From the IMG/VR virus record IMGVR_UViG_3300008113_008855, positions 1-54,667 of that record: a stretch of DNA of 54,667 nucleotides. One strand, given 5' to 3'. This DNA comes from a virus. Lineage: Duplodnaviria > Caudoviricetes. Position 1 is the first letter of the stretch. Each line of letters starts with the position of its first letter. Below the pieces are notes generated by a model, which searched no databases, was not told where the DNA came from, and saw only the letters and a program-made list of their open reading frames with translations. Shown here in pieces: positions 8,975 through 53,674 of the stretch. The position numbers were made by a program, and so were the translations under genes.

Positions 8975-10057
8975 ATGAATTTTTCTGTTCAGCTTCCTCT
9001 CAATAATCTTAGCTTTGGGCAAGTTAGTTACAATTTGCTATATGAATTTTTTAAGATGGGCCTAGAGCCTTGCTTATTTAAAGCTTCTGATCATCAAATA
9101 GACTATTCTGCTTATGATTTTGAACCAGAGTTTATTAGCTGGATTAATAATATTCACAACAAGTCTTTTACTAATCATAATAGAAGCATTCCTATTATTA
9201 GACTTTGGCATATAAATGACTCTTGGAGAACTTATTCTGATAAGCAAGTCTTGTTAACTTTCCATGAAACAGATGAGCTAACTGAAGCTGAAGTAAATAT
9301 AGCAAAGCACAGCAAACTTTGTGTAAGCTCTAAATTTTCTAAAGAAGTTTTTAAGAAGCACGGACTAGACGCTGAAGTTGTTAAGCTTGGATTTGACTCA
9401 AAGCATTTTAAAAAGTTAGATAAGGTTTATTTTGATGACGATAGAATTACATTTAATCTTTGTGGAAAGTTTGAGAAAAGAAAGCACCACGCTAAAATAG
9501 TAAAAACGTGGATTAAGAAGTTCGGAAGAAATAAAAAGTATTCTCTTCAGTGCGCTCTGCACAATATGTTTTATCAAGATCCTAACGAGCTTAAGCTTAT
9601 TTACAGCGATCTCCTTGATAATAGACAAGTATTTAATGTTTCGTTTTTGAATTTTATGCCAAAGAATTCTGTATATAATGACTACTTGAATTCTGGAGAT
9701 ATTATTATTGGAATGTCTGGAGGAGAGGGATGGGGCTTGCCAGAGTTCCAATCAGTAGCAATAGGAAAGCATGCTGTTATTTTAAATGCTACCTCTTATA
9801 AGGAGTGGGCCAATTCTGAAAATTCTATTCTTGTTAATCCTAATAATAAAACTGAAGTTTATGATGGCAAATTCTTTTCTAAAGGAGCGCCATTCAACCA
9901 AGGATCAATTTTTGATTTTAGCGAAGACGAATTTATCCACGGGTGCGAGCAAGCAATATCTAGGGTAGAAAAAGACAGAACAAATCACGAAGGGCTAAAG
10001 CTTCAAGATGAGTTTAAATATTCAGACCTAGCAAAACAATTACTATCAATGATTTAA
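8975..10057 (+). CDS. Glycosyltransferase, GT-B fold (GT4-like)
   Basis: GKFEKRK and SGGEGWGLPEFQSVAIGK (E-G-x-G-L-P) motifs. Confidence 0.85.
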   Translation: MNFSVQLPLNNLSFGQVSYNLLYEFFKMGLEPCLFKASDHQIDYSAYDFEPEFISWINNIHNKSFTNHNRSIPIIRLWHINDSWRTYSDKQVLLTFHETDELTEAEVNIAKHSKLCVSSKFSKEVFKKHGLDAEVVKLGFDSKHFKKLDKVYFDDDRITFNLCGKFEKRKHHAKIVKTWIKKFGRNKKYSLQCALHNMFYQDPNELKLIYSDLLDNRQVFNVSFLNFMPKNSVYNDYLNSGDIIIGMSGGEGWGLPEFQSVAIGKHAVILNATSYKEWANSENSILVNPNNKTEVYDGKFFSKGAPFNQGSIFDFSEDEFIHGCEQAISRVEKDRTNHEGLKLQDEFKYSDLAKQLLSMI

Positions 10058-12520: not shown

Positions 12521-13306
12521 ATGAAATTTTACATCCGTGGCGGAATTGGTGATTTTTTGCAGTCTCTTTGGTTCGCTAGAAACTACTCTCATAAAGAGTA
12601 TGTAGTTCACACTCACTTTAAAAAAGCCAAAGAGTTCTATGATCATTTTGGAATTAAGAATACCTTTTTCTATCCATTCGATGATTTGAAAAGCCACGAT
12701 GCTCAAGTAGATAATATTGTTAAAGAGCAAGGCGAAAATTCGACCAAGAATATCCAAGAAACTCCAAGGGCTTTTTATTCTGGATTTGAATTTGGAGAAG
12801 AGGCAGATAAGGCTTCAGAAGCTTTAGTTAATTCATTTAAGGAAAAGAAGAATATAATTGGAATTCACCCATTCCGAAGCGGCTTTGCTCTTTCTGTTTA
12901 CGCAAGCTTTGATCTTCCAGCCAGAATTATTCCGATCTCCATAACAAAAGAGATAATTAATAATGACAACAATTATCTAATTTTTGGCTCGAAAGAAGAG
13001 CTTGCCAATTACGGACTACAAGAGTCTGATAATGTAAAGTTTGTTTCTTTTGATAATATTCTCCACAGCTTGAATACAGTTAAGCATTGTAGCAAGTTGA
13101 TTGGCGTAGATAGTTGCTTTAAGACAATGTCATCTATGCAAAAGATTTCTACCATTTGTTTGATTGGAGATTTCCCAGATCAGACAAGAGACGCTTTCTT
13201 TGTTGATCAATATGTTAACGATGGTTACATGAAGGTTATGAAGGTGAAGGATATTGTGGCTGAACACGATCAAGTCGTGTCTTTTATTAAAGAAAACTTA
13301 GCTTAA
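12521..13306 (+). CDS. GT9-like (heptosyltransferase-type) glycosyltransferase
   Basis: RGGIGDFL, IGIHPF and LIGVDSCF motifs. Confidence 0.65.
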   Translation: MKFYIRGGIGDFLQSLWFARNYSHKEYVVHTHFKKAKEFYDHFGIKNTFFYPFDDLKSHDAQVDNIVKEQGENSTKNIQETPRAFYSGFEFGEEADKASEALVNSFKEKKNIIGIHPFRSGFALSVYASFDLPARIIPISITKEIINNDNNYLIFGSKEELANYGLQESDNVKFVSFDNILHSLNTVKHCSKLIGVDSCFKTMSSMQKISTICLIGDFPDQTRDAFFVDQYVNDGYMKVMKVKDIVAEHDQVVSFIKENLA

Positions 13307-13983
13307 TGAAAACATTCTACGCTCATATAGATCTTGGAGATCTTATCTATTCATTATATTTTGCCAAGAGACTTGGCGTAGAAAACTACTTAATAGATTC
13401 TAAAAGAGGCATTTGCAAATTTAATGAAGCTAGTAAAAACTTCATAACGCCCCTAATAAAAAATCAAAGCTATATAAAGTCTGTAGAAGATTTTAATTAT
13501 CAGCCTTATGATTTTGATTACGGATCTCATCCAAAAAACTTAGAAGTAAAAATTGGTGACAATCTGACAGAGTACCACTCTTCAAAATTTGATATTGACT
13601 GGAAAACCGTGCAAGAGCCTTGGCTTCAAGCGAATCCTATTGATTTCGGAAAAAAGATCATCATAAATAGAACTCCTAGATATCAAAAAAATTATTACTT
13701 TTATCATGATTTTTTAAGACATGTTAACTTGAATGATTGTTTATTTGTTGGGCTTGAGGAAGAATGGAAAGAATTTTGTTATCTATTTAAGAAACCAATG
13801 GATTATTATAGCAGCACATCTTCCGCAGATCTTGCTTCTGTAATTAATGGGTGCGAAACTTTTCTTGGAAATCAATCTTTAGCTCTATCTATCGCCACGG
13901 GACTTGGTAAGCACTGCATTGTTGAAACTGGAGAATATTGTGCTAATTATATTTTTAATAGCAAGAGAATGATTTATTTTTAA
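13306..13983 (+). CDS. GT9-like glycosyltransferase
   Basis: DLGDLIYSL and FLGNQSLALSIATGLG motifs. Confidence 0.6.
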   Translation: MKTFYAHIDLGDLIYSLYFAKRLGVENYLIDSKRGICKFNEASKNFITPLIKNQSYIKSVEDFNYQPYDFDYGSHPKNLEVKIGDNLTEYHSSKFDIDWKTVQEPWLQANPIDFGKKIIINRTPRYQKNYYFYHDFLRHVNLNDCLFVGLEEEWKEFCYLFKKPMDYYSSTSSADLASVINGCETFLGNQSLALSIATGLGKHCIVETGEYCANYIFNSKRMIYF

Positions 13984-14715
13984 ATGAAAATTGCGATCCT
14001 GAACATCTACACAAAGAACATAAAAGAGCTTGCTGTAATTACAGTAGAGTACAACAAGAGAAAGTATTGTGAAAAGCATAACTATGATTTAATTGTTCAA
14101 ACTGATAATTTTTCAATTCCACATCTTGGTTTTGAAAAGCTGGCAATGATCAAGCGCACACTTGAGACAGGAAAGTATGACTGGGTATACTGGTGCGGCT
14201 CGGACACAATGATAACAAACTACGATATCAAGATTGAAGATTTAATTGATAATAACTATTGCTTTATTCTTGCTTGTGATGTTTGGGATTGGAATGTTGA
14301 TTCTATGCTTTTTAAGAACGATAAAAGAAGCATAGATTTCTTAGAAAAAATAATCTCTAAGCACGATCAATATGTTGACGAAAATGGAAATGCCAGAAGC
14401 AATAATATAAAGCTAAAAGATGGCTGCACTATAGCTTGGGGAGAGCAGGCTGCAATCATTGAAGAATGCAAAGGCAAATTCTTTAGTCCAGAAATCAAAG
14501 AAGAGTACAAAGACTTTGTCAAAGAAGTCCCTCAGAAAACTATGAACTCTTATCTTTACGACTTGTATCCAACTCCATTCCATGCTAAAAAAATGGACTA
14601 TCAAGAAAGAAGAGGAGAGTGGTCTGATGGAGACTTTATAATGCACTGGCCCGGAACTAGAAATGAAATTCGCATTCGATTGGCTCTAAACTCAATTCAA
14701 CTCGTCAAAGAATAA
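13984..14715 (+). CDS. GT34 (GMA12/MNN10-like) glycosyltransferase
   Basis: NKRKYCEKHNYD, WVYWCGSDTMITN, EQAAI, GDFIMHWPG. Confidence 0.75.
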   Translation: MKIAILNIYTKNIKELAVITVEYNKRKYCEKHNYDLIVQTDNFSIPHLGFEKLAMIKRTLETGKYDWVYWCGSDTMITNYDIKIEDLIDNNYCFILACDVWDWNVDSMLFKNDKRSIDFLEKIISKHDQYVDENGNARSNNIKLKDGCTIAWGEQAAIIEECKGKFFSPEIKEEYKDFVKEVPQKTMNSYLYDLYPTPFHAKKMDYQERRGEWSDGDFIMHWPGTRNEIRIRLALNSIQLVKE

Positions 14716-14716
14716 C

Positions 14717-16027
14717 ATGCAAGAAATTCTAAATCTAATCAAAGAATACGCAGACTCTAATCTTACTAAAAAGAAATGGGAGGCTGGAAAAGATTGGGTT
14801 CAATATGGTGGCCCATACTTTTCATCAGCAGAGTACACCGCAGCAGTTAAGTCTCTTCTTGGCGGCTGGATTGTAATGTCTGAAGATTCATTATCTTTTG
14901 AGAATGTGTTTCCAAAACATCTTGGCAAGGAATACGGCATTCTTACTAATAGCGGCAGTAGCTCTAATTTAATTATGATGTCAGCAATGACATCTAAGAG
15001 GCTCTATAATTTTCCTAAAGGCACAAAAGTCATTACTCCAATCGCAGGATTTCCTACTACAATTAATCCTATATTTCAGGTAGGCTTTGAACCTGTGTTC
15101 GTTGATATTGATTTGGACACTTTAAACTTGAATCTTGATCAAGTTGAAGAACAAGCAAAGAAAGGAGCCAAGATTATAACTTTCGCTCATGTGCTTGGCA
15201 ATCCTCCAAATATGGATCGCTTGATGCAGATCATTAAGGACAACAATCTTGTTCTTTTGGAAGACTGCTGCGATGCTCTTGGTTGCACATATAAAGGACA
15301 AGTTCTTGGAAGCTTTGGAGAATTTGCTAGTTGCAGTTTCTATCCCGCTCATCACATGACAATGGGAGAGGGAGGATTTGTAGCTTGCAATACTAGACTT
15401 CAAGAAGTTGTAGCTAGAAGCTTCAGAGAGTGGGGTCGTGGATGTTATTGCGTAGGCAAGAAGGCTAATCTTCTCAAGAACGGAACCTGCAATAAGAGAT
15501 TCCATAATTGGCTCCCATCTATACCAGATGAAATTTTTGATCATAAATATGTCTATGATGAAATTGGTTATAATTTAAAGCCAATAGAACTTCAGGCTTC
15601 TATCGGTCTTGAACAAATCAAAAAGCTTCCTGAGATCCATAACAGGAGAAAAGAAAACCATGCCTTGCTAACCAATGCATTTAAGAAGTATGAAGAATTT
15701 TTCCATATTCCAGTAGCTACCCCAAATTCTGATCCTAGCTGGTTCGCGTTTGCTGTTACGCTAAAAGACTCATCACCATTCAAGAGGAGACGAATCGTAG
15801 ACTTCTTTGAAACCAACAAAGTTCAAACTAGACCATACTTTGCTGGCAACATAATGCTTCAGCCAGCTTACGAAGGTTATATTAGTCAAGAAGAGGTTAT
15901 TAAGAACTATCCAGTAGCAAGAAAAGTAACCTCAGATACATTCTTCTTGGGGACAAGCCCAGTTATTTCGATTCAGCAAATCCAATACATTGAAGAAAAA
16001 CTTGATTTATTTATTGGTAGTTTGTAA
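14717..16027 (+). CDS. rfbH: NDP-4-keto-6-deoxyglucose 3-dehydrase (E1; RfbH/DdhC/AscC family)
   Basis: NSGSSSNL, FPTTINP, AHVLGNP, EDCCDA, SFYPAHHMTMGEGG (His in place of the PLP Lys), WGRGCYC...TC, DHKYVY..IGYNLK. Confidence 0.92.
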   Translation: MQEILNLIKEYADSNLTKKKWEAGKDWVQYGGPYFSSAEYTAAVKSLLGGWIVMSEDSLSFENVFPKHLGKEYGILTNSGSSSNLIMMSAMTSKRLYNFPKGTKVITPIAGFPTTINPIFQVGFEPVFVDIDLDTLNLNLDQVEEQAKKGAKIITFAHVLGNPPNMDRLMQIIKDNNLVLLEDCCDALGCTYKGQVLGSFGEFASCSFYPAHHMTMGEGGFVACNTRLQEVVARSFREWGRGCYCVGKKANLLKNGTCNKRFHNWLPSIPDEIFDHKYVYDEIGYNLKPIELQASIGLEQIKKLPEIHNRRKENHALLTNAFKKYEEFFHIPVATPNSDPSWFAFAVTLKDSSPFKRRRIVDFFETNKVQTRPYFAGNIMLQPAYEGYISQEEVIKNYPVARKVTSDTFFLGTSPVISIQQIQYIEEKLDLFIGSL

Positions 16028-16038
16028 TATATTTTATC

Positions 16039-16884
16039 ATGTCTAAGGTAGTTTATATCACTGGATGCTTGGGCCTTATTGGCTCCTATCTCACTAGAGC
16101 TTGCTTAAAGCAAAATTATTATGTTATAGGAGTAGATAAAATTACCTACGCTGCAAGACCAGATCTTTTAAATGAATTTCTTGCATATGAGAAGTTTAAA
16201 TTTGAAGAGCAAGATATTTGCGATATAAGCAGACTTGTAGATTGTGATTACTTTATTAACGTTGCAGCAGAAACTCATGTAGATAACTCTATTAGAAAGA
16301 GTGATGACTTTATTAAGTCTAATATTAATGGAGTTCATAATATTCTTGAACTTATTAAAGGATACAAGAAGGAAGGAATAATTACCCCTACTCTTTTGCA
16401 CTTTAGCACCGATGAAGTTTACGGAGATATTTCTAATGGAGAGCATATTGAGACCGATCTATTAAAACCAAGCAATCCATACGCCGCAACCAAAGCCGCA
16501 GCAGATCAACTAACTCTTAATAGAAAGATTCCTCTTCATAATCAAGGAAGCCCATTCAGAAACTGGCTCCACGCAAAAGATACCGCAGAAGGAGTGCTGT
16601 CTATAATCAACAGTGGAGTAAAGAATGAAATATTTAATATTGCTGGAGGATTTGAGCAAAGTAATATCGTAACAGTCGAGAAGATTATAGCTGAATATTT
16701 TGGCAAACTTCCTTCTGATTATACCGATAAGTATCTTGATCTATCCGTCTCTAGAGAAGGGCAAGATGTAAGATATGCTCTAAATGATAATAAATTAAGA
16801 TCTTTAGGGTGGAAACCAAAGTGCAAATTTGATGATGAGTTAAAAGACATAGTTAAATATTACAAAAATAATTTCGTGTGGTAA
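16039..16884 (+). CDS. rmlB: dTDP-glucose 4,6-dehydratase (in-frame internal deletion near 16512)
   Basis: DKITYA, AAETHVDNSI, STDEVYG, PSNPYAATKAAAD, RNWLH, REGQDVRYA; the usual R..NNYG..Q..EKLIP segment is absent. Confidence 0.88.
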   Translation: MSKVVYITGCLGLIGSYLTRACLKQNYYVIGVDKITYAARPDLLNEFLAYEKFKFEEQDICDISRLVDCDYFINVAAETHVDNSIRKSDDFIKSNINGVHNILELIKGYKKEGIITPTLLHFSTDEVYGDISNGEHIETDLLKPSNPYAATKAAADQLTLNRKIPLHNQGSPFRNWLHAKDTAEGVLSIINSGVKNEIFNIAGGFEQSNIVTVEKIIAEYFGKLPSDYTDKYLDLSVSREGQDVRYALNDNKLRSLGWKPKCKFDDELKDIVKYYKNNFVW

Positions 16885-16915
16885 ACTAGCTTTTTAACAT
16901 TTACAATATTAAATT

Positions 16916-18679
16916 ATGACAAAGATTAGAGTCTCTGATTATATTGCCAACTTTTTAGAAAGCAAAGGCATAAAATACGCATTTGAAGTTCCCGGTGGTG
17001 GAGCAATGTTTTTAAATGACTCTATTGCAAAAAGCAACATTAAACCTATTTTTTGCCATCACGAACAGGCTTGTGCTATGGCTGCCGTTGGTTATACAAA
17101 ATTAACCAATGAAACATCTTTAGTAGTTTGTACCTCTGGGTGCGCTGGAACAAATGTTATTACAGGATTATTAGACGCATGGCAAGACAGCCATAAATTA
17201 ATAGTAATATCCGGACAAGTAAATAAAAAAGATACAACTTATTTAAAAAATGTTCCACTAAGAAAACTAGGTATACAAGAAGTAAATATAGTAAAAATTA
17301 TCAGCTCTATAACCAAGTATTCTACTATGGTTGAAGACGCTAATAATATTGCTTATGAGCTAGAAAAGGCATACCATATATGCACAACTGGCCGTCATGG
17401 ACCCGTTTGGATAGACGTTCCACTAGATATCCAGTCCGCTTATATAAATTTAGAAGACCTAAATCATTTTAATATTCCAGAAGTTGTTGTTGGTAGCAAA
17501 GAATCTGAGGTATTTAAAAAATACTTGTCGGAATCAAAAAGACCTATAATAATTGCTGGCAATGGAATATATTTGTCCAACTCTAAAAACGAATTTAAAA
17601 ATTTTATTGAACAATATCAAATTCCAGTAGCATGCACATTTTTAGGTATAGATATACTAGAAGAAGAGCATCCTCTTTATGTTGGCAGAATAGGGCTCAA
17701 AGGAACTAGAGCTGGTAATTTTGCCGTTGCTAATTCTGATTTAGTAATATCTATCGGAAGCTCTCTTAATATTCCTACTACTGGTTTTCAATATCATTTA
17801 TTCGCTAGAGAAGCTAAGATAATAGCGATTGACATTGATACTAACGAGCACTCAAAAAACACTGTAAAAATAAATGAAATAATAAATGAAGATATTTCTA
17901 ATTTTATATCTTCTAATATGCGTTTGGAATACAGATGCCCATCAACTTGGGTAGAAAAATGTCAACATTGGAAAAACAAATGGAATACATTCGATAGAAA
18001 AGATATAGATTTATTGAATATGTATTCTTTCTCTAAGAAGTTAGGAGAAATTACAAAAGAAAGCAAGTCAATTGTTGTCACGGATGCCGGATCTGCTAAT
18101 TATGTGCTATGTCAAACTCTTATTAATAGCAGACTAATACTTCCTGCTGCTCAAGGAGAAATGGGGTTTATGATTCCAGCCTGCGTTGGAATTAGTCTTG
18201 GAGCAAAAAATGAAAATGTAATAGGCGTAACTGGAGAAGGATCTTTTCAATTTAATATCCAAGAGCTTCAAACTATAGTTCAAAACAAACTTCCTATAAA
18301 AATGTTTATTTTGAACAATGGCGGTTATTTGTGCATAAGAAACACTCAAATAAAATTCTTTAATAAAAATTTCTCTGGCGTAGACGCAAGCTCAGGGGTT
18401 TCTTTTCCAGATCCAGAAAAAATCGCATATGCATATGGAATACCTTTTAAGAGAATATCTAACATAGAAGAATTGCATCAAAATTTAAAATCAATAATAG
18501 AATATAATGGAGCATATTTGTGCGAAATAATGTGCCCATCTGATGAAGAAGTTTATCCTACATCAGCAACAATGAAAACAGAAGATGGAAAATTAGTATC
18601 TCAACCATTAGAAAACATGTCTCCATTCTTATCTAAAGAAGAGTTTGAGAAAGAAATGATAGTCAAAATTCACAAATAA
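16916..18679 (+). CDS. Thiamine-diphosphate enzyme, acetolactate-synthase-like (YerE-type in this context)
   Basis: HHEQACAMAA, ISGQV, GRHGPVWIDVPLDIQ, GEGSFQFNIQEL...LNNGGY ThDP motif. Confidence 0.88.
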   Translation: MTKIRVSDYIANFLESKGIKYAFEVPGGGAMFLNDSIAKSNIKPIFCHHEQACAMAAVGYTKLTNETSLVVCTSGCAGTNVITGLLDAWQDSHKLIVISGQVNKKDTTYLKNVPLRKLGIQEVNIVKIISSITKYSTMVEDANNIAYELEKAYHICTTGRHGPVWIDVPLDIQSAYINLEDLNHFNIPEVVVGSKESEVFKKYLSESKRPIIIAGNGIYLSNSKNEFKNFIEQYQIPVACTFLGIDILEEEHPLYVGRIGLKGTRAGNFAVANSDLVISIGSSLNIPTTGFQYHLFAREAKIIAIDIDTNEHSKNTVKINEIINEDISNFISSNMRLEYRCPSTWVEKCQHWKNKWNTFDRKDIDLLNMYSFSKKLGEITKESKSIVVTDAGSANYVLCQTLINSRLILPAAQGEMGFMIPACVGISLGAKNENVIGVTGEGSFQFNIQELQTIVQNKLPIKMFILNNGGYLCIRNTQIKFFNKNFSGVDASSGVSFPDPEKIAYAYGIPFKRISNIEELHQNLKSIIEYNGAYLCEIMCPSDEEVYPTSATMKTEDGKLVSQPLENMSPFLSKEEFEKEMIVKIHK

Positions 18680-18680
18680 T

Positions 18681-19430
18681 ATGAAAAATTTAATTGAAAA
18701 TTTACAAAATTTATCTATCTCACGCAATGTCATTGGAATTAAACAGTCTTTTGAAGATGAAGGCGTTTCTACCGAAGATGTAATTCTAGCAAGAAGAATT
18801 ACAGATAAGTGCGAGCTTCAAAGCTTTGTCAAAATAGGAGGGTGCGAAGCTAAGTCTGATTTAAATAAATGTATCAAGATCGGGATTGATAATATCATAG
18901 CTCCAATGGTAGAGTCTGAGTTTTCTTTATCTAAATTTATAAATATCACAAATGATCATTCCAGTTTAATAAATAGATTTATAGTGGTAGAAACTAAAAC
19001 AGCATATCAAAATATAGATGAGCTTTTAAGTTTAGCGAAGAACAGTTTAAATGGAATAATTGTTGGCAGATCAGATTTTTCTAAATCTTATAACTTAAAT
19101 AAATCTGAATGCGATAGCGATTTTATTTTTGAAAAAGTAAAAGATATTTTTACAAAATGCAAAAAAGAAAAACTCCAAACAACTTTGGGAGGAAACATTT
19201 CCGCAAAAAGCGTCAAGTTTATAAAAGAAATGTATTTTAATTCTTTACTTGACAAAATCGAAACCAGAAACATAGTAGTAAAGTTGAATCAATCTAACGT
19301 TTCTGACCTAGATAACACCATTCAAGAAATCCTTAAATTTGAAATTGAATGGACTCAATTCAAAAGAAACAAACTGTTTTCCTCCTTAGGGGAGCTAGAT
19401 AGTAGAATCAAAATATTAAATAATCGATAA
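18681..19430 (+). CDS. HpcH/HpaI aldolase / citrate-lyase-like TIM-barrel protein
   Basis: FEDEG, VKIGGCEA, IIAPMVES, VETK, VGRSDF. Confidence 0.7.
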   Translation: MKNLIENLQNLSISRNVIGIKQSFEDEGVSTEDVILARRITDKCELQSFVKIGGCEAKSDLNKCIKIGIDNIIAPMVESEFSLSKFINITNDHSSLINRFIVVETKTAYQNIDELLSLAKNSLNGIIVGRSDFSKSYNLNKSECDSDFIFEKVKDIFTKCKKEKLQTTLGGNISAKSVKFIKEMYFNSLLDKIETRNIVVKLNQSNVSDLDNTIQEILKFEIEWTQFKRNKLFSSLGELDSRIKILNNR

Positions 19431-19431
19431 A

Positions 19432-20589
19432 ATGAAAACACGATTCGAAACATTGCAAAGTATTGTTCATAAAGAACAGTGTTTTAAAATGATATGCGGA
19501 GCTGGAAATGAAGATAGAAATCATGTAAAAAAACTAGCTTTTGTTTACACTTTAGCTGGAACAAAAATTTTAGATGTATCAGCAAATGTTGAGGTTGTAA
19601 AGGCCGCAATGGAAGGCATTGATCTAGCTTATGATTACGCTCATAAATTAAATACTACAATAGAGCATAGACCATATATTATGGTAAGCGTCGGTATGCC
19701 AGGAGACCCTCATGTTAGAAAGTCATTTATAAATCAAGACAAATGTATTGCATGTACTTTATGCATTCCAATTTGCCCAACCGACGCTATCCCTAAAGAC
19801 TTTACTAAGAATTTAGATTTTTTTAAGAAACTTAATGGATCGTTTGACGTAGAGGATCAGTCAAAAGAAATTGTAATAAAAGATCTATGTATTGGATGCG
19901 GTAAATGCAGCAGCATCTGTCCAAAATCTGATATCATATCATATAGACACAACGCAAGAGAAGTTAATGAATTACTGCCAAAATGCATGAATGCAGGAGC
20001 AGAACTATTCGAGCTTCATGCTGGCGTTGGTGAAGACGATATCACTCTCCAAGAGTGGAAGCTTATCAATGAAATAAATACAAACAATTATAATTCAATG
20101 TGTCTAGATAGATTAAATCTTGGCAATTTGCGACTAGAACATCGAATTCAAGAAGCTAAAAAGATTTCAGGAAATAGGCTAATGATTCAAGCTGACGGCT
20201 ATCCAATGAGCGGTGGAGAAGACGATTATAATACAACCCTTCAAGCTGTCTCATGCGCCGATGTTGTAAATAAAAAATTCAACATGAGAATCGATAAAAA
20301 GCGAGGACTAGATAAATTAGGAAAGCCAAAGATATCATCTAAAAAAATCTATAAAGATATAAATGATAATGATAATATTCCTATTCTTATATCTGGAGGA
20401 ACCAACTCATTCAGTAAAGAACTAGCTGAAAAAGCTGGAGTAAGAATAAATGGCGTGTCTATAGGAACATTTGCAAGAGACCTTATCGAAGAGTTTATTG
20501 TTTCTAATGATTTCTATAATAACGATGAGCTAATAAATTTAGCATATTTAAATGCTAAAGAACTAATCACCAAAAGCAACAAAGCATAA
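19432..20589 (+). CDS. LdpA-like 2x[4Fe-4S] protein
   Basis: FKMICGA..., LAFVYTLAG...DVSA, MVSVG..GDPHVRK, CIACTLCIPICP, CIGCGKCSSICP, QADGYPMSG, SGGTN parallel cyanobacterial LdpA. Confidence 0.78.
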   Translation: MKTRFETLQSIVHKEQCFKMICGAGNEDRNHVKKLAFVYTLAGTKILDVSANVEVVKAAMEGIDLAYDYAHKLNTTIEHRPYIMVSVGMPGDPHVRKSFINQDKCIACTLCIPICPTDAIPKDFTKNLDFFKKLNGSFDVEDQSKEIVIKDLCIGCGKCSSICPKSDIISYRHNAREVNELLPKCMNAGAELFELHAGVGEDDITLQEWKLINEINTNNYNSMCLDRLNLGNLRLEHRIQEAKKISGNRLMIQADGYPMSGGEDDYNTTLQAVSCADVVNKKFNMRIDKKRGLDKLGKPKISSKKIYKDINDNDNIPILISGGTNSFSKELAEKAGVRINGVSIGTFARDLIEEFIVSNDFYNNDELINLAYLNAKELITKSNKA

Positions 20590-20592
20590 AAC

Positions 20593-20973
20593 ATGAAACA
20601 ACTAACGATAGCTGTAGACTTTGACGGAACATTATGCGAATACGCATTTCCTAATATAGGAAATCAAACCGATCAGCAAAAGCAACTTTTAAATCTTTTG
20701 ATCAGCCTGAAGCAAAAAGGTCACTATTTGATACTATGGACAAATCGAGGAGACAATGAAAAATTAAAATGCTTAAGCGAAGCAATTGAATGGTGCAAGC
20801 AACAAGGCTTAGAATTCGATCAAATTAATAAAAACAATCCAGAAAGAGAAGCTAAAAAGCTTTCTGGATATAGCCCTAAAATTTTAGCAGATTACTATAT
20901 AGACGACAAAGCTCTTGAGTTCGGAAACGAAGCTGCAAGGTTTAGAAGCTTAAGTTTTCTATCTTCTCTATGA
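20593..20973 (+). CDS. Small HAD-superfamily phosphatase
   Basis: AVDFDGT, ILWTNR, K..ADYYIDDK. Confidence 0.8.
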   Translation: MKQLTIAVDFDGTLCEYAFPNIGNQTDQQKQLLNLLISLKQKGHYLILWTNRGDNEKLKCLSEAIEWCKQQGLEFDQINKNNPEREAKKLSGYSPKILADYYIDDKALEFGNEAARFRSLSFLSSL

Positions 20974-21740
20974 AAATTTTAATTACTGGGTCAAACGGTT
21001 ATGTAGCGAAAGCGCTTATTGAGTCTTTAAGTAAAAAACATTCAATTACTTGTTTATCTAGGATGGAAGCAGATTTAACATCTCTAGAAGAGGTTAATTA
21101 TTTTTTTAATAAACATTCAATTTTTGATGTTGTAATACATACCGCAATAACTGGAGGAAGAAGGACAAAGCCTGAAGATGGCGAAACTACAGATCAGAAC
21201 ATAAAGATGTATTATAATCTTTTAGAAAATAGAAATAGTTTTCGCAGATTTATTTCATTTGGATCTGGTGCAGAACTTCTAGCCTTAAACACGCCTTATG
21301 GTATAAGCAAAAGACTTATAGCAGACTCAATGAAGTATAAGGACAAATTTACTAACATTAGAATATTCGGTTGTTTTGATCATAATGAAGCAAACGATAG
21401 GTTTATAAAAGGAAATATAATCCGTTATATAAATAAAGAGCCCATTCAAATATACGAAAACAAACAGATGGACTTCTTCTTCATGGAAGATTTGATTTCT
21501 ATTGTTGAATATTGCCTAGCTCAAGAAAATCCTCCTAAAGAAGTAAACTGCTCATACAAAGAAAAATACTCTCTTTATCAAATTGCTGAAATAATAAATT
21601 GCCTAGGAAACCATAATGTACCTATATCCTCAAACAATTCTTTTGGAAAAGATTACATTGGAGAATTTAATTTACCGATCTCATATCTTGGACTAGAGAA
21701 AGGTATCAGGTCGGTTTATAATAAACTATCTAACTCATGA
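20970..21740 (+). CDS. NAD-dependent epimerase/dehydratase/reductase (extended SDR)
   Basis: ILITGSNGYV, FGSGAE, YGISK (YxxxK), RIFG. Confidence 0.85.
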   Translation: MKILITGSNGYVAKALIESLSKKHSITCLSRMEADLTSLEEVNYFFNKHSIFDVVIHTAITGGRRTKPEDGETTDQNIKMYYNLLENRNSFRRFISFGSGAELLALNTPYGISKRLIADSMKYKDKFTNIRIFGCFDHNEANDRFIKGNIIRYINKEPIQIYENKQMDFFFMEDLISIVEYCLAQENPPKEVNCSYKEKYSLYQIAEIINCLGNHNVPISSNNSFGKDYIGEFNLPISYLGLEKGIRSVYNKLSNS

Positions 21741-22630
21741 ATTCCGAAAGCAAGAAAAGATACGCCATACGAAGACATCTCTCTGGAGATGGTCTTGGGT
21801 CCAAAATGGGCAACTATGCGATTCTTTATGCTATTCATTTAGGAACAGGATTAATACCAGCTTATCTTAGCGACGAGTCTAATGATGCTTTTGATTTCTT
21901 TAATAAAGATAAAAACAATGTTTTAGATATCAAACAAGCTTTTCCAAATGTAAAAAAAGTATTTGAAAAAATAAATTTTTCAGAACACAAATGGGAACAC
22001 GTTAATACTGGTGTAATGCCATTAGAAAATATTATATACAGCATAATAGTAAATAGAAAATTTGGGCAATTTCCAAATTTTAGTTTTGAATGGTTTCAAA
22101 GGTACGATCAATGGTATGCTTTCAGAAGAGAAGTCACAGAGCTGTTTACTTTTAATTCAGATTTAATAAATAAAGCAAAATCCAATCTCCCAAACATAAA
22201 TAAAAAAATAGTGGGCGTTTCATTCAGAAACGAATATAAGAAATTTAATAGCACTGGAGGTCATAGTAAATTAGGAATTGATTATTATCGCAAAGCTTTT
22301 AGTTGCTTTCCTAAGGAAGATTATTGCTTTCTTATATTTGCAGATTTTTTTGAACAATGCCCAGAAGTTTTAGATCAATTATCTGGTGAGTACGATATAA
22401 TGTATACAAAAGAAAACATGTCTAGCGCAGAAGGCATGGCTACCCTTTCTCTTTGTGATAGCATTATTAATTCTAATAGTTCTTTTAGTTTTTGGGCTTC
22501 GTTTTTAAATAAAAATATAAACAAAAAAATCATTGCCCCAAATTACTTTTTACATCCTAGCCACGCTGGAGCAGGTCTTTTAAACCACAGATGGTTTCCT
22601 AGTGAATGGACTGGATTAAACGAAGTATAA
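21737..22630 (+). CDS. GT11 (alpha-1,2-fucosyltransferase-like) glycosyltransferase
   Basis: GLGSKMGNYA, DYYRKA, LSLCDSIINSNSSFSFWASFL, IIAP..W. Confidence 0.75.
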   Translation: MNSESKKRYAIRRHLSGDGLGSKMGNYAILYAIHLGTGLIPAYLSDESNDAFDFFNKDKNNVLDIKQAFPNVKKVFEKINFSEHKWEHVNTGVMPLENIIYSIIVNRKFGQFPNFSFEWFQRYDQWYAFRREVTELFTFNSDLINKAKSNLPNINKKIVGVSFRNEYKKFNSTGGHSKLGIDYYRKAFSCFPKEDYCFLIFADFFEQCPEVLDQLSGEYDIMYTKENMSSAEGMATLSLCDSIINSNSSFSFWASFLNKNINKKIIAPNYFLHPSHAGAGLLNHRWFPSEWTGLNEV

Positions 22631-22632
22631 TT

Positions 22633-23541
22633 ATGACATACGAAGCTTTCATGTTCTTCCAAGAGAACGACCTTCTTGAGGTAAAATTAAATCAACACTG
22701 GAATTTCATAGATAAATTTATTATCGTCGAAGCTGGAGAAACTCACACTGGTATAAAAAAGGATCTTATATTTGATCACGAAAGATTCAAAAAATACTCA
22801 GATAAAATCATATACAGATCATTCAATTCATTTGCAGAACTATATGATATTTATCCCAATATAGTCTCTGGACATATATACAAAACGGTTAAAGCTCAGC
22901 CACATCTTGCCTTAAATGACTGGATGAGAGACGCTATTCAAGCCGAATATCTAACAGTTGTATTATTAGAGCAGCAACCAAAAGATTCAGACATTATTCT
23001 TTTCTCCTGTCTGGACGAAATATTAAATGAAGAAGCCTTTTCAGAGGCTCATAAAATTTTTTCAGAAAGTAAAACTTACAATCTTTATTCTCATCTTCAA
23101 CGTAAATATATTACAACCTCTTGCGATTTTGCTCCCACTTTTGGATTTGATGTAGACATGTACGCTTATAAGCTGAATCTATATAGCAAAAAAAGTGCTA
23201 TTGGATGCATGACTTTATTTTCTAATTTAAACAAAATTAAACACACAGAACTTAGATATTATGCTTTAAGTACTCACGATCCGATTAAAAATGCTGGATG
23301 GCACTTTACATTCTTAGATGACACAAGAGGAGAAAAAGCCCTGAAAAAATACAAAAGCTGGGCTCACTCAAGAGATAGCGGTCATAATGTTTCTTATTTT
23401 GATATTGAAACTCCATTAGAAGCCGAAAAAAGAGTCATTTCCGAATACAATACTCAGGTAGTAGAAATATCTTCAAAGACTCACCCCAAATGGCTCATTG
23501 ACAACATCTCTAAATATTCTAGTTACATTTATTCTGCTTGA
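22633..23541 (+). CDS. GT17 (GnT-III-like) glycosyltransferase
   Basis: FMFFQENDLLEVKL, FIIVEAGETHTG..K, DEI, AGWHFTF, SWAH. Confidence 0.75.
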   Translation: MTYEAFMFFQENDLLEVKLNQHWNFIDKFIIVEAGETHTGIKKDLIFDHERFKKYSDKIIYRSFNSFAELYDIYPNIVSGHIYKTVKAQPHLALNDWMRDAIQAEYLTVVLLEQQPKDSDIILFSCLDEILNEEAFSEAHKIFSESKTYNLYSHLQRKYITTSCDFAPTFGFDVDMYAYKLNLYSKKSAIGCMTLFSNLNKIKHTELRYYALSTHDPIKNAGWHFTFLDDTRGEKALKKYKSWAHSRDSGHNVSYFDIETPLEAEKRVISEYNTQVVEISSKTHPKWLIDNISKYSSYIYSA

Positions 23542-23552
23542 TTATAATTAGT

Positions 23553-24492
23553 ATGAAAAAGATTCTGATAACTGGTATTCTCGGGCAAGATGGCGCTAAC
23601 ATGGCGGAATACTTACTTAAGAATACTGACTGCCTAATCTATGGCATGATGCGTAGAAGCTCGAATCCAAATTTTATTAATTGTCAGTCATGGATGCAGT
23701 TGGGAAATGCCGTTGCAGACGCTAGACGTTAATGCAAACGGAGTTCTTAGATGCTTAGAGGCCATCAGAAAACTAAAGCCTGCTTGCAGATTCTATTCCG
23801 CTGGCTCAAGCGAAGAATTCGGAGACGTTGAATATTTCCCTCAGGATATTAAGCATCCAATAAGACCAAGAAGCCCATATGGCGCATCAAAAGCTTCAGC
23901 TAGGCACATTGTTAAAGTTTATAGAGAGTCTTATAATCTATATGCTGTTCACGGTATTTTATTTAACCATGAAGGCACGAAAAGAGGAGAAGAATTTGTA
24001 ACTCGTAAAATTACCAAAGGAGTAGCTCGAATTAAGAAAGCTATAGACAGCAATCAAGTATTTACCCCAATTGAATTAGGTAATCTAGACTCTAAAAGAG
24101 ACTGGTCAGATTCAGAAGACTTTGTTGATGGGGTATGGAAAATGCTAAATCAAGAAAAGCCCAAGGACTATGTTCTTTCTAGCGATGAGACCCATTCGAT
24201 CAGGGAGTTCGTAGAGAAGGCATTTAAATTTGCTGGAATAAATGGAGCTTGGCATGGGCAAGGACTAACCGAAGAGTACAGCGTTACAACCGAGTACGCT
24301 TTAAAAAATGAGCCTATCTCATCTATCTTAGTTAAAATAAATCCTAAATTTTACAGACCAGCAGAGGTTGATCTTCTCTTGGGCAATTCTGAGCCAGCTA
24401 GGGAAGAACTCAAGTGGGCTCCAAAAACTTCATTTAATGCCCTTGTCAAAAAAATGGTTGAAAATGACATTCGCCTCTTGACTGGGGCGTGA
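23553..24492 (+). pseudogene. gmd: GDP-mannose 4,6-dehydratase, frameshifted by an internal deletion at ~23691
   Basis: N-part ITGILGQDG...RRSS; C-part (GCSWE)MP...SSEEFG, PRSPYGASK, GILFNHEG..RGEEFVTRKIT, LGNLDSKRDW, YRPAEVDLL; the GDL...NLAAQSFV segment is missing. Confidence 0.85.
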
Positions 24493-33572: not shown

Positions 33573-34148
33573 ATGCTTCAATTCTACAAACCAAATTCCA
33601 AGAACACCGGCTGTGGTTGCTCCTTTAAGTATTCTGCCAAGGACGACTGTATTTTCGTAAACATGATTAAGCAAGCTAGTTGGGACGAGCAGACAAAGCG
33701 AGGCTCGTTCGCTGGCAACGCTCAAAACCCAAAGGCTTCATGCTCTCTGAAGCTTAGCCTGACAGAGGCTGCTGATATCATCTCTGCTGTCCGCCGTAAC
33801 GGAGACATTTCTGCGTTCCACGACTCCGCAAAGCAAGTTACCAGAATTAAGTTCTCTCCTTATGTTCGCCCAACTAAGGATGACCCAAGTAAGACCGCTC
33901 AAGTAGGTTATTCCTTCTCAGTGTCGAAGGAGAGCAAGGAGAACGCGCAAGACAAGACTTCTTTCTTGATTGGTTTTACTTTTGGCGAAGGAACTCGCCT
34001 TGAGTCTTTCCTATGCTTTGCTCTAGCGAAAAGTTTTGAAAAGGCTTCGCTTGAGCAAGATAATAGATCAGCCGCTACTCCTCAAGCAGCCCCTCCAAAG
34101 AAGGAGGAGGCTCCTAAGCAGGAGTCGTCGGATGAAGATCTATGGTGA
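33573..34148 (+). CDS. Putative ssDNA-binding protein (Whirly/PC4-like) with acidic tail
   Basis: Beta-rich core, A/P linker and ESSDEDLW terminus, directly after dnaE; TTGACA upstream at 33537. Confidence 0.5.
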   Translation: MLQFYKPNSKNTGCGCSFKYSAKDDCIFVNMIKQASWDEQTKRGSFAGNAQNPKASCSLKLSLTEAADIISAVRRNGDISAFHDSAKQVTRIKFSPYVRPTKDDPSKTAQVGYSFSVSKESKENAQDKTSFLIGFTFGEGTRLESFLCFALAKSFEKASLEQDNRSAATPQAAPPKKEEAPKQESSDEDLW

Positions 34149-36007
34149 GAAAAAAGAAATTAGTATTTCACAGCGATTTTGCCCTTTCTAAGACTGGCTT
34201 TGGTAGAAATACCAAGGCCATTCTTTCTTATTTATTTAATACTGGAAAGTACGAAATCGTCTCTATTGCTGGCGGAATATCAAAAGCTCACCCAGAGCTA
34301 GAGAGAACTCCTTGGAAAAGCGTAGGCGTAGTTCCTATGACTGGCCAAGAACAAATAGATTGCAATAGCTCGCCAGATAAAACTAGGCTTTATGCTTATG
34401 GAGCCTATGAAGTAGACTCTGTAATTAAACAAGAAAAACCCGATGTTTATATTACTGCTCAGGATTTTTGGGGAGTTGATTTCGCAATCTCTAAACCTTG
34501 GTTCAACGGTATAACTTCAGCTATTTGGACCACTCTTGATTCTTTGCCTTTGCTGCCATCAGCAGTTAAAGAAGCCCCTAATGTTAAAAACTATTGGGTC
34601 TGGTCAAATTTTGCTGAGAAAGAAATGCATAAGCTTGGGCATAGCCATGTAAAAACAGTTCATGGATGCATTGAGGTGGCAGATTTTAAACCTCTACCCC
34701 CAGAAGAAAAAGAATCTTTAAGAGAAAAGAATGGCATCTCTAAAGATGAATTTATTATTGGCTTTGTATTTAGAAATCAGCTAAGAAAGTCTGTTCCAAA
34801 TTTACTTCAAGGCTTTAAGATTTTTAAAGATAGTAACCCAAAAATCAACGCCAAATTATTACTGCACACTAATTGGCAAGAGGGCTGGAATATTTTAAAG
34901 CTCTGCAAAGAAGCGGAAGTAGACAACTCAGATATTCTTACTACTTATGTTTGCAAGTCTTGCAGAGGATATGAAGTAAAAAATTTCTCAGGACCAGAAG
35001 TTAATTGCTCTTATTGCAAGACTAATAGTTCTTGCGTCACTACTGGAGTCTCTTATGGCGTAAACGAGAAACAACTAAATGAGATATATAATTGCATGGA
35101 TGTGTATTGCCATCCATTCACAAGCGGAGGACAAGAGATTCCAATTCAAGAAGCCAAATTAGCTGGATTAATTACTCTTGTTACTAATTATAGTTGCGGC
35201 GCAGAGATGTGTTGCCCAGAAGCTCACTCGTATGCGCTAGACTGGAGCGAGTATAGAGAGTTTGGAACTGAGTTTATTAAAGCTTCAACAAGTCCTCAAT
35301 CTATAGCTGAGAAACTGCAAATAGTTTATAGCATGCCTATTGATCAGAGGATTAAAAAAGGTAGACTAGCAAGAAAATGGGCTATAGATAATTTTTCCAC
35401 AGAAAGCATTGGCGGCAAAATAGAGAAGTTTATCGACTCCGCTCCATTCGCTGAGCATAGAGACGAGCCGCCTCCAGCTCCTGCTGTAAATCCAGAAGCA
35501 GAGATTCCAGACATTAAAGATAGAGTTTTGTGGCTAAAAGCTCTTTATGATAAAATTCTAGGCAGAAAAACTAGTGAAGAGGACGAAGGTTTACTCCACT
35601 GGGTTAATAAGCTTGATGGTGGAATGTCTAGGCAAACGGTTGAGTCTTTCTTTAGGTCTACCGCAAAACAAGAACTGGCTAAATTTAAACCCACCACTTT
35701 TGAAGACATCTTTGGTGACTCTAAGAAAGGTGACAGAATACTAGTAGTAATTAACTCTGCAAAAGAAAATGTATTCCTAGCTACTAAAATCATAAGAGGA
35801 ATCAAAAAGAAATATCCAGAAAAACTAGTCTTTATATTTACAAACAAAGACGCCTCTGAAATTTTTATGGGCAATAGCGATGTTTCAGATGTTCTAGTTC
35901 AAGGTAAAGAGTTTAGAAATCCTGAATTTTTAAAGGATAATTTCTATGAATGCTATTCTTTAGATGAGTTTTCTATCAATAATAATCATTCAGTTTTCCT
36001 CAAATGA
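34142..36007 (+). CDS. GT4-like glycosyltransferase with CxxC insert and C-terminal extra domains
   Basis: TGFGR, FRNQLRK, CKSC...CSYC, PFTSGGQEIPIQEA; LY..ILGR...EEGL.HW resembles DUF4214. Confidence 0.75.
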   Translation: MVRKKKLVFHSDFALSKTGFGRNTKAILSYLFNTGKYEIVSIAGGISKAHPELERTPWKSVGVVPMTGQEQIDCNSSPDKTRLYAYGAYEVDSVIKQEKPDVYITAQDFWGVDFAISKPWFNGITSAIWTTLDSLPLLPSAVKEAPNVKNYWVWSNFAEKEMHKLGHSHVKTVHGCIEVADFKPLPPEEKESLREKNGISKDEFIIGFVFRNQLRKSVPNLLQGFKIFKDSNPKINAKLLLHTNWQEGWNILKLCKEAEVDNSDILTTYVCKSCRGYEVKNFSGPEVNCSYCKTNSSCVTTGVSYGVNEKQLNEIYNCMDVYCHPFTSGGQEIPIQEAKLAGLITLVTNYSCGAEMCCPEAHSYALDWSEYREFGTEFIKASTSPQSIAEKLQIVYSMPIDQRIKKGRLARKWAIDNFSTESIGGKIEKFIDSAPFAEHRDEPPPAPAVNPEAEIPDIKDRVLWLKALYDKILGRKTSEEDEGLLHWVNKLDGGMSRQTVESFFRSTAKQELAKFKPTTFEDIFGDSKKGDRILVVINSAKENVFLATKIIRGIKKKYPEKLVFIFTNKDASEIFMGNSDVSDVLVQGKEFRNPEFLKDNFYECYSLDEFSINNNHSVFLK

Positions 36008-37886: not shown

Positions 37887-38156
37887 TTACCACTTTCCTG
37901 CTGGACAGCTTTCAAAATCTAATTTTACTTTAATAGTAACAAAGCATCCACACAGTTCGCATCTGCCGCTTTGCTTGCAAAGCTTTGGGCATTTGTTGCA
38001 AATAGATAACCTCTTTTCCGCGCTATCCGGATTAGAGGTTATTTTTTCATTATTTATTATTGCTGAAGCGGCTTTCTTTGATGAAGAGACAAGGCTATTT
38101 TTAATTTTTAAACCTTCCTTCATTAAACTGGAAAACGAAAGATCGTTTTGACTCAT
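37887..38156 (-). CDS. Small Cys-rich protein, DUF6171-like
   Basis: RLSICNKCP....RCELCGCF...K......CPAGKW. Confidence 0.7.
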   Translation of the reverse strand: MSQNDLSFSSLMKEGLKIKNSLVSSSKKAASAIINNEKITSNPDSAEKRLSICNKCPKLCKQSGRCELCGCFVTIKVKLDFESCPAGKW

Positions 38157-41629: not shown

Positions 41630-41631
41630 AA

Positions 41632-44209: not shown

Positions 44210-44210
44210 A

Positions 44211-53673: not shown

Positions 53674-53674
53674 A

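Follow-up and report, generated by a model that had tools for sequence, protein, structure and literature searches.

What would a relative of a circadian clock protein be doing inside the sugar operon of a phage? LdpA is described, in the available part of PMC5520375, as a clock input protein and redox sensor that is said to be restricted to cyanobacteria. The question is raised by a virus record of IMG/VR (IMGVR_UViG_3300008113_008855), a stretch of 54,667 bp analyzed here as a whole and referred to below as the window, in which the gene at 19432-20589 encodes a full-length LdpA-like protein and lies between genes for a putative lyase and a haloacid dehalogenase (HAD) phosphatase. On balance, it seems probable that this protein is a catalytic iron-sulfur (Fe-S) oxidoreductase, the core of a lyase-LdpA-HAD sub-module that makes a 2-oxo acid for the YerE-like enzyme encoded just upstream. 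The trio of genes recurs in phages and in many phyla of bacteria; the LdpA family as a whole was found in phages and at least ten such phyla. That the protein is a redox enzyme involved in making glycan precursors is suggested by the linkage of its gene to sugar genes, by the retention of its barrel residues, and by the presence of a gene for an Fpr-type reductase in seven loci. From gene content, fold, conservation and co-occurrence patterns, all of which were observed, we infer the redox activity of the LdpA-like protein, the order of the steps, and the nature of the substrate and product.

The region 18681-20973 consists of three abutting open reading frames (ORFs) on the + strand and is not one gene:

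18681-19430, + strand: putative pyruvate/phosphoenolpyruvate (PEP)-dependent C-C lyase of 249 aa, here called c5 (PF03328; fold)
19432-20589, + strand: LdpA-family protein of 385 aa (PF25160, NF045992; AlphaFold2 model)
19744-19779, + strand: first CxxCxxCxxxCP motif, residues 105-116 (translation)
19888-19923, + strand: second CxxCxxCxxxCP motif, residues 153-164 (translation)
20593-20973, + strand: small capless HAD phosphatase of the BT0820 family, 126 aa (NF046079, 2obb, DFDGT)

The two motifs of the LdpA-like protein read C105-x2-C108-x2-C111-x3-C115-P and C153-x2-C156-x2-C159-x3-C163-P, and the Pfam domain LdpA_Fe-S-bd (PF25160) is recognized at 39.2 bits against a cutoff of 27.6. The NCBIfam model CircClkLdpA (NF045992) aligns residues 7-358 with profile positions 5-324 of 360 (E 2e-41), at a score of 142.2 bits that lies below the equivalog cutoff of 450 and so outside the S. 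elongatus type. LdpA_C (PF12617) reaches 20.3 bits, slightly below its cutoff of 22.2, and is present as a precomputed hit in many homologs at 64-77% identity; DUF561 (PF04481) reaches 21.4 bits, below 21.6. In the ESM Atlas, every one of the nearest clusters has an LdpA_C or LdpA_Fe-S-bd domain, and the PHROGs collection holds no family for the protein at E 1e-5 or better. A preliminary description of the locus had reported a full-length LdpA-like gene with two CxxCxxCxxxCP clusters, placed between an aldolase and a HAD phosphatase. It was correct on both points, since the gene is found with its motifs and profile matches and is abutted by the lyase and HAD genes; among the domain profiles, LdpA_Fe-S-bd bears the assignment out and LdpA_C falls just short.

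The AlphaFold2 model of the LdpA-like protein, built with 54 homologs (pLDDT 95.6, pTM 0.92), is a (beta/alpha)8 barrel with a ferredoxin-like segment for two [4Fe-4S] clusters inserted between strands 3 and 4. In a wide VIA-align comparison, 2-keto-3-deoxy-6-phosphogluconate (KDPG) aldolase scored Z 17.9, with barrels of the hexulose-phosphate synthase, DeoC and ribulose-phosphate epimerase types tied at Z 15-18; Old Yellow Enzyme (Z 15.8) and 2,4-dienoyl-CoA reductase (Z 15.2) were also found, and Foldseek against the PDB returned only generic triosephosphate isomerase (TIM) barrels, at a TM of about 0.4. The best rows are thus non-redox barrels, which favors a different reading, namely that the protein catalyzes an isomerization, epimerization or aldol step on a sugar phosphate and that its clusters serve only as a redox sensor by which the activity is gated. 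Such a module would be reminiscent of the KdsD-KdsA-KdsC-KdsB pathway, the barrel taking over the position of the isomerase, and one locus (L022) does hold a KdsB-like match. The description of LdpA as a redox sensor, in the same available part of PMC5520375, would also be in keeping with such a switch. We nevertheless consider it unlikely. The tied fold rows do not exclude flavin or redox barrels, as Old Yellow Enzyme and the dienoyl-CoA reductase illustrate; all eight cluster cysteines are invariant or nearly so in an alignment (A2) of 54 LdpA-like sequences that reaches down to 26% identity; and the Fpr-type gene stands directly beside the LdpA-like gene in six loci, which points to electron supply rather than sensing.

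Conservation extends to the barrel of the presumed oxidoreductase. Across seven groups comprising 76 proteins, the residues at the strand ends are identical (K19, D48, S86, D92, H94, K97, E194, H196, S222, D226, R227, Q253 and D255), and the same 76 proteins keep phosphate-type loops at SGGTN321-325 and G341/G345/A348-R349. Judging from sequence divergence, the protein is under strong purifying selection: it is 92% identical to its counterpart at locus L002 despite saturated synonymous change (dN 0.048, dS 2.9), and the neighboring lyases of the two loci are only 60% identical. In a quick maximum-likelihood tree, the phage LdpA-like proteins form a clade (SH-aLRT 100) that is sister to a protein from a Chloroflexota metagenome-assembled genome (MAG; SH-aLRT 92). 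The enclosing clade adds Pelagibacteraceae and an Omnitrophota protein (SH-aLRT 99), and every one of its members carries the c5-LdpA-HAD trio.

The iron-sulfur dehydrase and its electrons

The operon that surrounds the trio runs along the + strand from 12521 to 23541 as one series of abutting or overlapping ORFs, and is especially tight from 16916 to 21740, where stop and start codons touch or overlap. It begins with two unknowns and continues, with the weak HpcH-family lyase, the LdpA-like protein and the 126-aa HAD standing between the fourth and fifth entries, as follows; the last entry lies just beyond the run:

13984-14715, + strand: GT34-like glycosyltransferase (PF05637, 42.5 bits)
14717-16027, + strand: E1-type nucleoside diphosphate (NDP)-4-keto-6-deoxyhexose 3-dehydrase (RfbH/DdhC), of the pyridoxamine phosphate plus [2Fe-2S] type (NF011936; alignment with 3bcx)
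16039-16884, + strand: NDP-hexose 4,6-dehydratase homolog with an in-frame 39-residue deletion (TIGR01181 in two stretches)
16916-18679, + strand: YerE-like carboligase dependent on thiamine diphosphate (ThDP) (three TPP_enzyme domains; match to 8rph)
20970-21740, + strand: extended short-chain dehydrogenase/reductase (SDR), its start overlapping the HAD stop codon (PF01370, 61 bits)
21737-23541, + strand: two glycosyltransferases, GT11-like and GT17-like (PF01531, 48.6 bits; PF04724, 45 bits)
23553-24492, + strand: GDP-mannose 4,6-dehydratase gene (gmd), frameshifted by a 122-bp deletion (Pfam; DNA alignment to the sibling phage L094)

The presence of an E1 gene in this operon raises the possibility that the Fe-S clusters of the LdpA-like protein serve that enzyme. 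The E1 product scores 449 bits against the RfbH model NF011936 (cutoff 423) and aligns end to end with the Yersinia E1 3bcx (E 8e-101). It retains the active-site histidine (FYPAHH) that replaces the aminotransferase lysine, together with cysteines in EDCCDALG, GCYC and TCNKRF. According to the available part of PMC8987622, E1 enzymes are marked by this RfbH-type histidine and by four cluster cysteines, the Fe-S type requires two electrons, the partner reductase E3 uses NADH, FAD and a [2Fe-2S] cluster, and general ferredoxin or flavodoxin reductase pairs have been reported as functional partners of the E1 homolog SpnQ. Judged by its sequence, the window E1 is of the type requiring an external reductant. 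A reductase-independent, ColD-type E1 was also considered and rejected on account of the cluster cysteines.

The preliminary description had stated that the window lacks an E3 gene and had proposed that the LdpA-like protein replaces it. The first statement holds: a six-frame search of the window gave no match to NAD_binding_1 (PF00175), Fer2 (PF00111) or an NTP_transferase domain, with control genomes positive for PF00175 and PF00111, although the window is rated by CheckV at 36% completeness and the remainder of the genome is therefore unseen. Under the second, the LdpA-like [4Fe-4S] clusters would pass electrons to the [2Fe-2S] cluster of E1 and so stand in for AscD/RfbI in C-3 deoxygenation. 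In its favor, the window E1 is an Fe-S type needing two electrons (PMC8987622, available part), and a 296-kb relative rated 100% complete, whose LdpA-like protein and E1 are 91% and 77% identical to those of the window, likewise has no NAD_binding_1 domain. Moreover, an E1-type gene lies within 7-9 kb in 14 of 25 viral and 4 of 80 cellular LdpA-like loci, with no E3-like ORF found by motif.

Wider sampling tells against such a replacement. An E1-based scan yielded 65 viral loci, with E1 homologs 49-94% identical and flanks of 10 kb, and only three of these contain an LdpA-like gene, on the same three contigs that had been matched with LdpA as query. None of the 65 has an E3-like ORF according to a sequence motif (C-x4-C-x2-C-x20-40-C plus RxYS), a screen cruder than whole-record Pfam searches, and ferredoxin motifs were found only in the three LdpA-like ORFs; in 62 of the 65 E1 loci, an LdpA-like gene is thus lacking, and so is any other Fe-S or E3-like ORF. 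By the whole-record search, NAD_binding_1 is absent from all five large E1-bearing phage records (84-100% complete), that is, from the 296-kb relative and from four others that are 84, 87, 100 and 100% complete. Phage E1 genes are, therefore, normally found without a phage-encoded reductase, and the window cluster is not unusual in having no E3. SpnQ, with its general reductase pairs (PMC8987622, available part), offers a precedent for such independence.

The LdpA-like gene does not follow E1 in either direction. It is present in 3 of the 32 viral E1 loci that have a ThDP gene and in none of the 33 that lack one; the nearest siblings of the window phage (L094 and L095) keep E1 and have no LdpA-like gene. 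Conversely, an E1-type gene lies within 7 kb in just 7 of the 83 LdpA-like loci recovered in the first two scans, leaving 76 without, and eight viral loci pair the trio with a cytidine monophosphate (CMP)-transferase in the absence of any E1-type gene. A conserved barrel active site would also not be expected of a mere electron carrier. The LdpA-like protein itself gave no match to Fer2, FAD_binding_6 or NAD_binding_1 in the Pfam scan, and so has none of these E3 domains. Taken together, these observations make a surrogate E3 distinctly improbable. The preliminary description had allowed for either a redox enzyme or an electron donor in sugar biosynthesis, and it is the redox enzyme that finds support, in the sugar linkage, the barrel residues and the seven loci with an Fpr-type gene.

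Neighbors of the LdpA-like gene in phages and bacteria

The 83 loci of the first two scans (3 viral and 80 from one-genome-per-species contigs) were surveyed by clustering all ORFs within 7 kb and scanning representatives against Pfam and NCBIfam. Sugar-nucleotide or aldolase/HAD neighbors occur in 52 of them, far beyond the cyanobacteria, in support of a recurrent linkage to sugar genes. An aldolase-type gene is present in 41 loci: 18 have the weak HpcH-like c5, 24 a true HpaI/GarL-like aldolase, and 19 a protein of 540 aa whose HMGL domain resembles that of BphI/4-hydroxy-2-oxovalerate aldolases. A HAD phosphatase, either of the small BT0820 type or of a 250-aa HAD_2 type, is present in 33, and the two functions are found together in 30. 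The members of the trio are thus subject to non-homologous replacement, with BT0820-type HAD exchanged for HAD_2 and c5 for the BphI-like HMGL protein. A cytidylyltransferase of the CTP_transf_3 family accompanies 28 loci, and the CMP-transferase of L022 passes both kdsB models (TIGR00466, 165.6 against 155.2 bits; NF009905, 258.8 against 255). In a typical cellular operon, as seen in Microthrix, Nitrosomonadales, Omnitrophota and others, genes for the HMGL-like protein, LdpA-like protein, HAD_2, HpcH aldolase, cytidylyltransferase and a surface-carbohydrate protein succeed one another in this order. Finally, the seven loci mentioned above, none of which has an E1-type gene, include within 7 kb a gene for a 290-aa Fpr-type reductase whose profile matches ferredoxin/flavodoxin-NADP reductases of the E. 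coli type (2xnj, E 1.9e-12).

A broader viral scan recovered 25 full-length LdpA-like loci and one remnant. Downstream of the LdpA-like gene, 24 of the 25 have the small HAD, and upstream of it 23 have the c5 lyase. Sixteen loci carry a YerE-like ThDP gene (14 of them with an E1-type gene) and eight carry a CMP-transferase and no E1-type gene; no locus has both a ThDP gene and a CMP-transferase, and the single locus with neither is cut by the contig end. That a ThDP enzyme or a CMP-transferase is present, but never the two together, suggests that the trio forms a sub-module whose output can take either of two routes, each through an enzyme that takes 2-oxo acids. Enzymes of the KdsB type act on 3-deoxy-2-ulosonic acids, which they activate. 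YerE-like enzymes use 2-oxo acids as acyl-anion donors (PMC9306805).

The enzymes on either side of the LdpA-like protein in the window are consistent with such a product. The lyase matches HpcH_HpaI (PF03328) at 31.3 bits against a cutoff of 25, and a profile search of the PDB retrieves HpcH aldolases at E 4e-9 over part of its length only. Its AlphaFold2 model (pLDDT 94) aligns at Z 16.5-18.1 with pyruvate kinase, HpcH aldolases, citrate lyase beta and malyl-CoA lyase, all tied, as against Z 14 or less for generic TIM barrels; on this modeling, it appears to be a divergent member of the pyruvate kinase/HpcH/CitE barrel superfamily and is best called a putative pyruvate/PEP-type lyase. The HAD protein has motif I (DFDGT), scores 89 bits against the BT0820-family model NF046079 (below the equivalog cutoff of 165), and has 2obb as its sole PDB sequence match (E 2.6e-20). 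The ThDP enzyme finds its best PDB match in JanthE (8rph; 360 bits over the full length), which is described as YerE-like in the available part of PMC12188165, compared with 242 bits for the best acetolactate synthase. With its three TPP-enzyme domains and greater nearness to YerE-like enzymes than to acetolactate synthases, it is, by sequence criteria, a YerE-like enzyme. The SDR, a homolog of which is found in 44 of the 65 viral E1 loci, is a candidate branch-carbonyl reductase in the role of YerF/ErwF.

In the pathway that we propose, the LdpA-like protein would be a phosphate-binding TIM barrel receiving electrons through its two inserted ferredoxin-type [4Fe-4S] clusters, from either a host ferredoxin or an Fpr-type partner. 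The lyase (18681-19430) would form a C-C bond, and the LdpA-like protein would reduce a phosphorylated intermediate, the aldol product, or would instead make the aldehyde for the lyase, as ErwJ does for ErwI. The HAD phosphatase (20593-20973) would then remove the phosphate. The resulting 2-oxo acid, possibly of the 3-deoxy-ulosonic type, would serve as donor for the ThDP enzyme (16916-18679), which would add it, with decarboxylation, to the 4-keto-3,6-dideoxyhexose produced by the 4,6-dehydratase and E1. Lastly, the SDR (20970-21740) may reduce the branch, and the glycosyltransferases may place the acyl-branched sugar on a host surface glycan.

Several observations weigh against this proposal. 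The fold search is unable to separate aldolase, epimerase, synthase and flavin barrels, and the modeled structure accordingly names no reaction. No sugar or aldolase/HAD neighbor is found in 31 of the 83 loci, among them those of Synechococcus/Cyanobium, Sericytochromatia and many Gastranaerophilales; in Synechococcus/Cyanobium the LdpA-like gene adjoins holB, tmk and a response regulator. In one viral locus (L003/L160) the lyase is missing from a set that otherwise keeps ThDP enzyme, LdpA-like gene and HAD, so the lyase is not always needed in cis, and the 14 of 25 viral loci in which the trio is accompanied by an E1-type gene would also fit a link to E1. In the window, moreover, two sugar genes are damaged. 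The dehydratase is 73% identical to a 320-aa homolog in L094 and shows a 39-aa gap right after YAATKAAADQ, the catalytic YxxxK segment, so that the gene may be inactive or the deletion an assembly artifact; the gmd ORF (23707-24492) matches its Pfam profile only from position 95, about 40 N-terminal codons lie in another frame, and DNA alignment to L094 shows a gap of 122 columns. The pathway may thus be decaying here, or the assembly may be faulty.

A further conceivable role is general electron transfer at low potential, to some other locus-encoded or host enzyme such as a radical S-adenosylmethionine (SAM) enzyme, with the barrel acting only as a docking scaffold. Genes for B12-binding radical-SAM proteins do occur within 7 kb in five loci (L051-L053, L055 and L057), and radical-SAM genes flank some Gastranaerophilales copies. 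Against this, none was found among the window cluster genes scanned with Pfam or among the recurrent gene families labeled in viral loci, the barrel residues are conserved, and the only constant partners of the LdpA-like protein are the lyase and the phosphatase, neither of which needs electrons. A pure carrier is, consequently, very improbable indeed, and the catalytic oxidoreductase is retained as the preferred interpretation.

The surveyed neighborhoods also offered a number of separate observations. The radical-SAM protein of the five loci just named is about 570 aa long (e.g., L052 11523-13247), and in L052 its gene adjoins the cytidylyltransferase gene, an arrangement reminiscent of methylation of a CMP-activated substrate. 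A phosphonate pathway, suggested by the combination of HMGL-like protein, cytidylyltransferase, B12 radical-SAM protein and ThDP enzyme, was dropped when no PEP-mutase match was found among the scanned neighbors. The LdpA-like gene has, as its immediate neighbor, a gene for a paralog of 273-300 aa in a number of Prochlorococcus loci and in one of Pelagibacteraceae (L020 1108-1929; L026, L027, L028, L030, L031; L034 9614-10513); this paralog clusters with the LdpA-like proteins but lacks ferredoxin motifs and matches no Pfam or NCBIfam model. The viral remnant (L184 9001-9132) encodes 50 residues that are 40% identical to residues 4-53 of the LdpA-like protein, in a locus with lyase, ThDP enzyme and SDR but no HAD, and looks like a loss of the LdpA-like/HAD pair. 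In another viral locus (L165), the YerE-like ThDP gene is split into ORFs of 343 and 245 aa.

Among the cellular loci, an IS110-family transposase gene separates the HMGL-like aldolase and LdpA-like genes of an Arcobacteraceae MAG (L010 8511-9722), and a reverse-transcriptase gene (RVT_1; L016 14016-14999) lies just downstream of an Omnitrophota cluster for E1, ThDP enzyme, lyase, LdpA-like protein, HAD and SDR. One protein of a Microgenomates locus (L068 11754-13484) combines the HMGL-like aldolase domain with an MptE-like (DUF115) domain in a single chain. Finally, in a Pelagibacteraceae locus (L007 12158-13631) the trio and a PseF-like cytidylyltransferase gene are followed by HisF-like and HisH-like genes, pairs of which occur in amidino-sugar pathways.

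Sibling phages and the remainder of the window

Comparison with sibling phages helps to assign the LdpA-like gene to one part of the operon. In the closest sibling (L094), the E1, GT34, SDR and gmd genes are 94%, 96%, 86% and 94% identical to those of the window, and the interval between dehydratase and SDR is occupied by a NeuB-family synthase, a ThDP enzyme, a short-chain dehydrogenase and a 3-dehydroquinate-synthase-like enzyme. The L094 ThDP enzyme is only 35% identical to that of the window. A further phage (L099) has a c5-like lyase, a dehydrogenase, a 3-dehydroquinate-synthase-like enzyme and a ThDP enzyme. The difference between these cassettes indicates that the LdpA-like gene and its ThDP enzyme belong to a variable, side-chain part of the operon and not to the constant E1 part. 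Marine phages would, on this evidence, swap side-chain cassettes on a constant 3,6-dideoxyhexose chassis, which may bear on how phages remodel host surfaces.

Elsewhere in the window, genes for replication are represented by a class II ribonucleotide reductase, a RecA-like protein, DnaB and the DNA polymerase III alpha subunit. The large minus-strand ORFs of 38153-54616 gave no PHROG match at E 1e-5 or better among those scanned, a set that left out the largest, 44211-50684. Two further features complete the picture:

5' end of the window: tail-fiber-like gene
8975-10057 and 34142-36007: glycosyltransferase-like genes (phrog_2170), outside the main sugar operon

Clock LdpA and published sugar pathways

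If the phage protein is an enzyme, the same may be asked of LdpA itself, which is treated in the literature, as far as the available part of PMC5520375 goes, as having no catalytic role. LdpA-like loci outside the cyanobacteria, recovered in the one-genome-per-species scan, contradict a cyanobacteria-only restriction for the wider family. The NF045992 cutoff does little to divide that family by function. It is passed by the S. elongatus control genome and by none of five cyanobacterial and related genomes tested, each of which has exactly one LdpA homolog (117-135 bits); the tested Prochlorococcus, Synechococcus and Cyanobium genomes have their sole homologs at 117-129 bits. That these sole picocyanobacterial homologs also fall below the cutoff indicates that it separates S. 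elongatus-like sequences and not a function. Their proteins have all the conserved barrel residues identical. Of the 10 Prochlorococcus loci sampled in the one-genome-per-species scan, 9 have genes for the same lyase, HAD, HpcH aldolase or CMP-transferase no more than 7 kb from the LdpA-like gene.

It is therefore possible, though we would call it doubtful, that the whole LdpA family, including the picocyanobacterial clock-input protein, consists of ferredoxin/Fpr-driven reductases acting on a phosphorylated surface-glycan precursor. The precursor might be that of a 3-deoxy-2-ulosonic acid like 3-deoxy-D-manno-octulosonic acid (Kdo) or of a 2-oxo-acid side chain. The Prochlorococcus neighborhoods, the identical barrel residues and the single homolog per genome lend support to this extension, from few genomes. 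Were it true, the redox-sensor phenotype in the clock would be a consequence of a metabolic role. No publication linking LdpA relatives to phages or to sugar synthesis came out of a search of the full-text literature with most subscription journals outside its scope, nor did any that deals with what DUF561/Ycf23 proteins do. The role proposed within the trio gives the LdpA family, which has had none, a testable biochemical function.

With clock LdpA, the window protein shares homology over nearly the whole NCBIfam model, the two CxxCxxCxxxCP motifs and the LdpA_Fe-S-bd domain. It differs in being phage-encoded and in residing in a sugar operon and not in a housekeeping setting, and the Pfam and PHROGs scans of window ORFs turned up no clock genes. 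Clock input by LdpA is characterized by a redox-dependent effect on period and by association with KaiA and CikA. The likeness to E3 (AscD/RfbI/DdhD; CDP-6-deoxy-delta-3,4-glucoseen reductase) is limited to its being an Fe-S protein encoded beside E1; the LdpA-like protein is instead a TIM barrel with two [4Fe-4S] motifs, and its distribution does not track E1.

Kdo is made by the KdsA synthase, the KdsC HAD phosphatase and the KdsB CMP-transferase, preceded by the KdsD isomerase. A similar combination of a C-C forming enzyme, a HAD phosphatase and a CMP-transferase accompanies the LdpA-like gene in the cellular operons and in eight viral loci. The condensing enzymes of the trio are, however, HpcH-type and BphI-like aldolases rather than KdsA, and the Fe-S barrel step, sometimes with an Fpr-type reductase, is an addition for which Kdo synthesis has no counterpart.

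Further parallels are the clusters for acyl-branched sugars, namely yersiniose (YerE/YerF), erwiniose (ErwE/F/I/J) and caryophyllose (MMAR_2331/2332), which have the same enzyme set according to the main text of PMC9306805. YerE, ErwE, MMAR_2332 and MyGE add 2-oxo acids to CDP-4-keto-3,6-dideoxyglucose; the donor acids are products of a pyruvate aldolase, which is BphI-like in the case of ErwI and belongs to the aldolase/citrate lyase family in that of MMAR_2331; and, in the erwiniose pathway, ErwJ supplies the aldehyde to ErwI, a reductase finishing the branch (PMC9306805). The window, at 14717-21740, has the gene content of an acyl-branched 3,6-dideoxyhexose cluster, with keto-sugar genes, a ThDP enzyme, a reductase and an aldolase-type gene. 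It is set apart by being phage-borne and by having no nucleotidyltransferase or E3 gene within the window. Where erwiniose relies on the acetaldehyde dehydrogenase ErwJ as helper to the aldolase, the window has the LdpA-like Fe-S protein and a phosphatase; the published route to acyl-branched sugars would thereby gain an iron-sulfur step.

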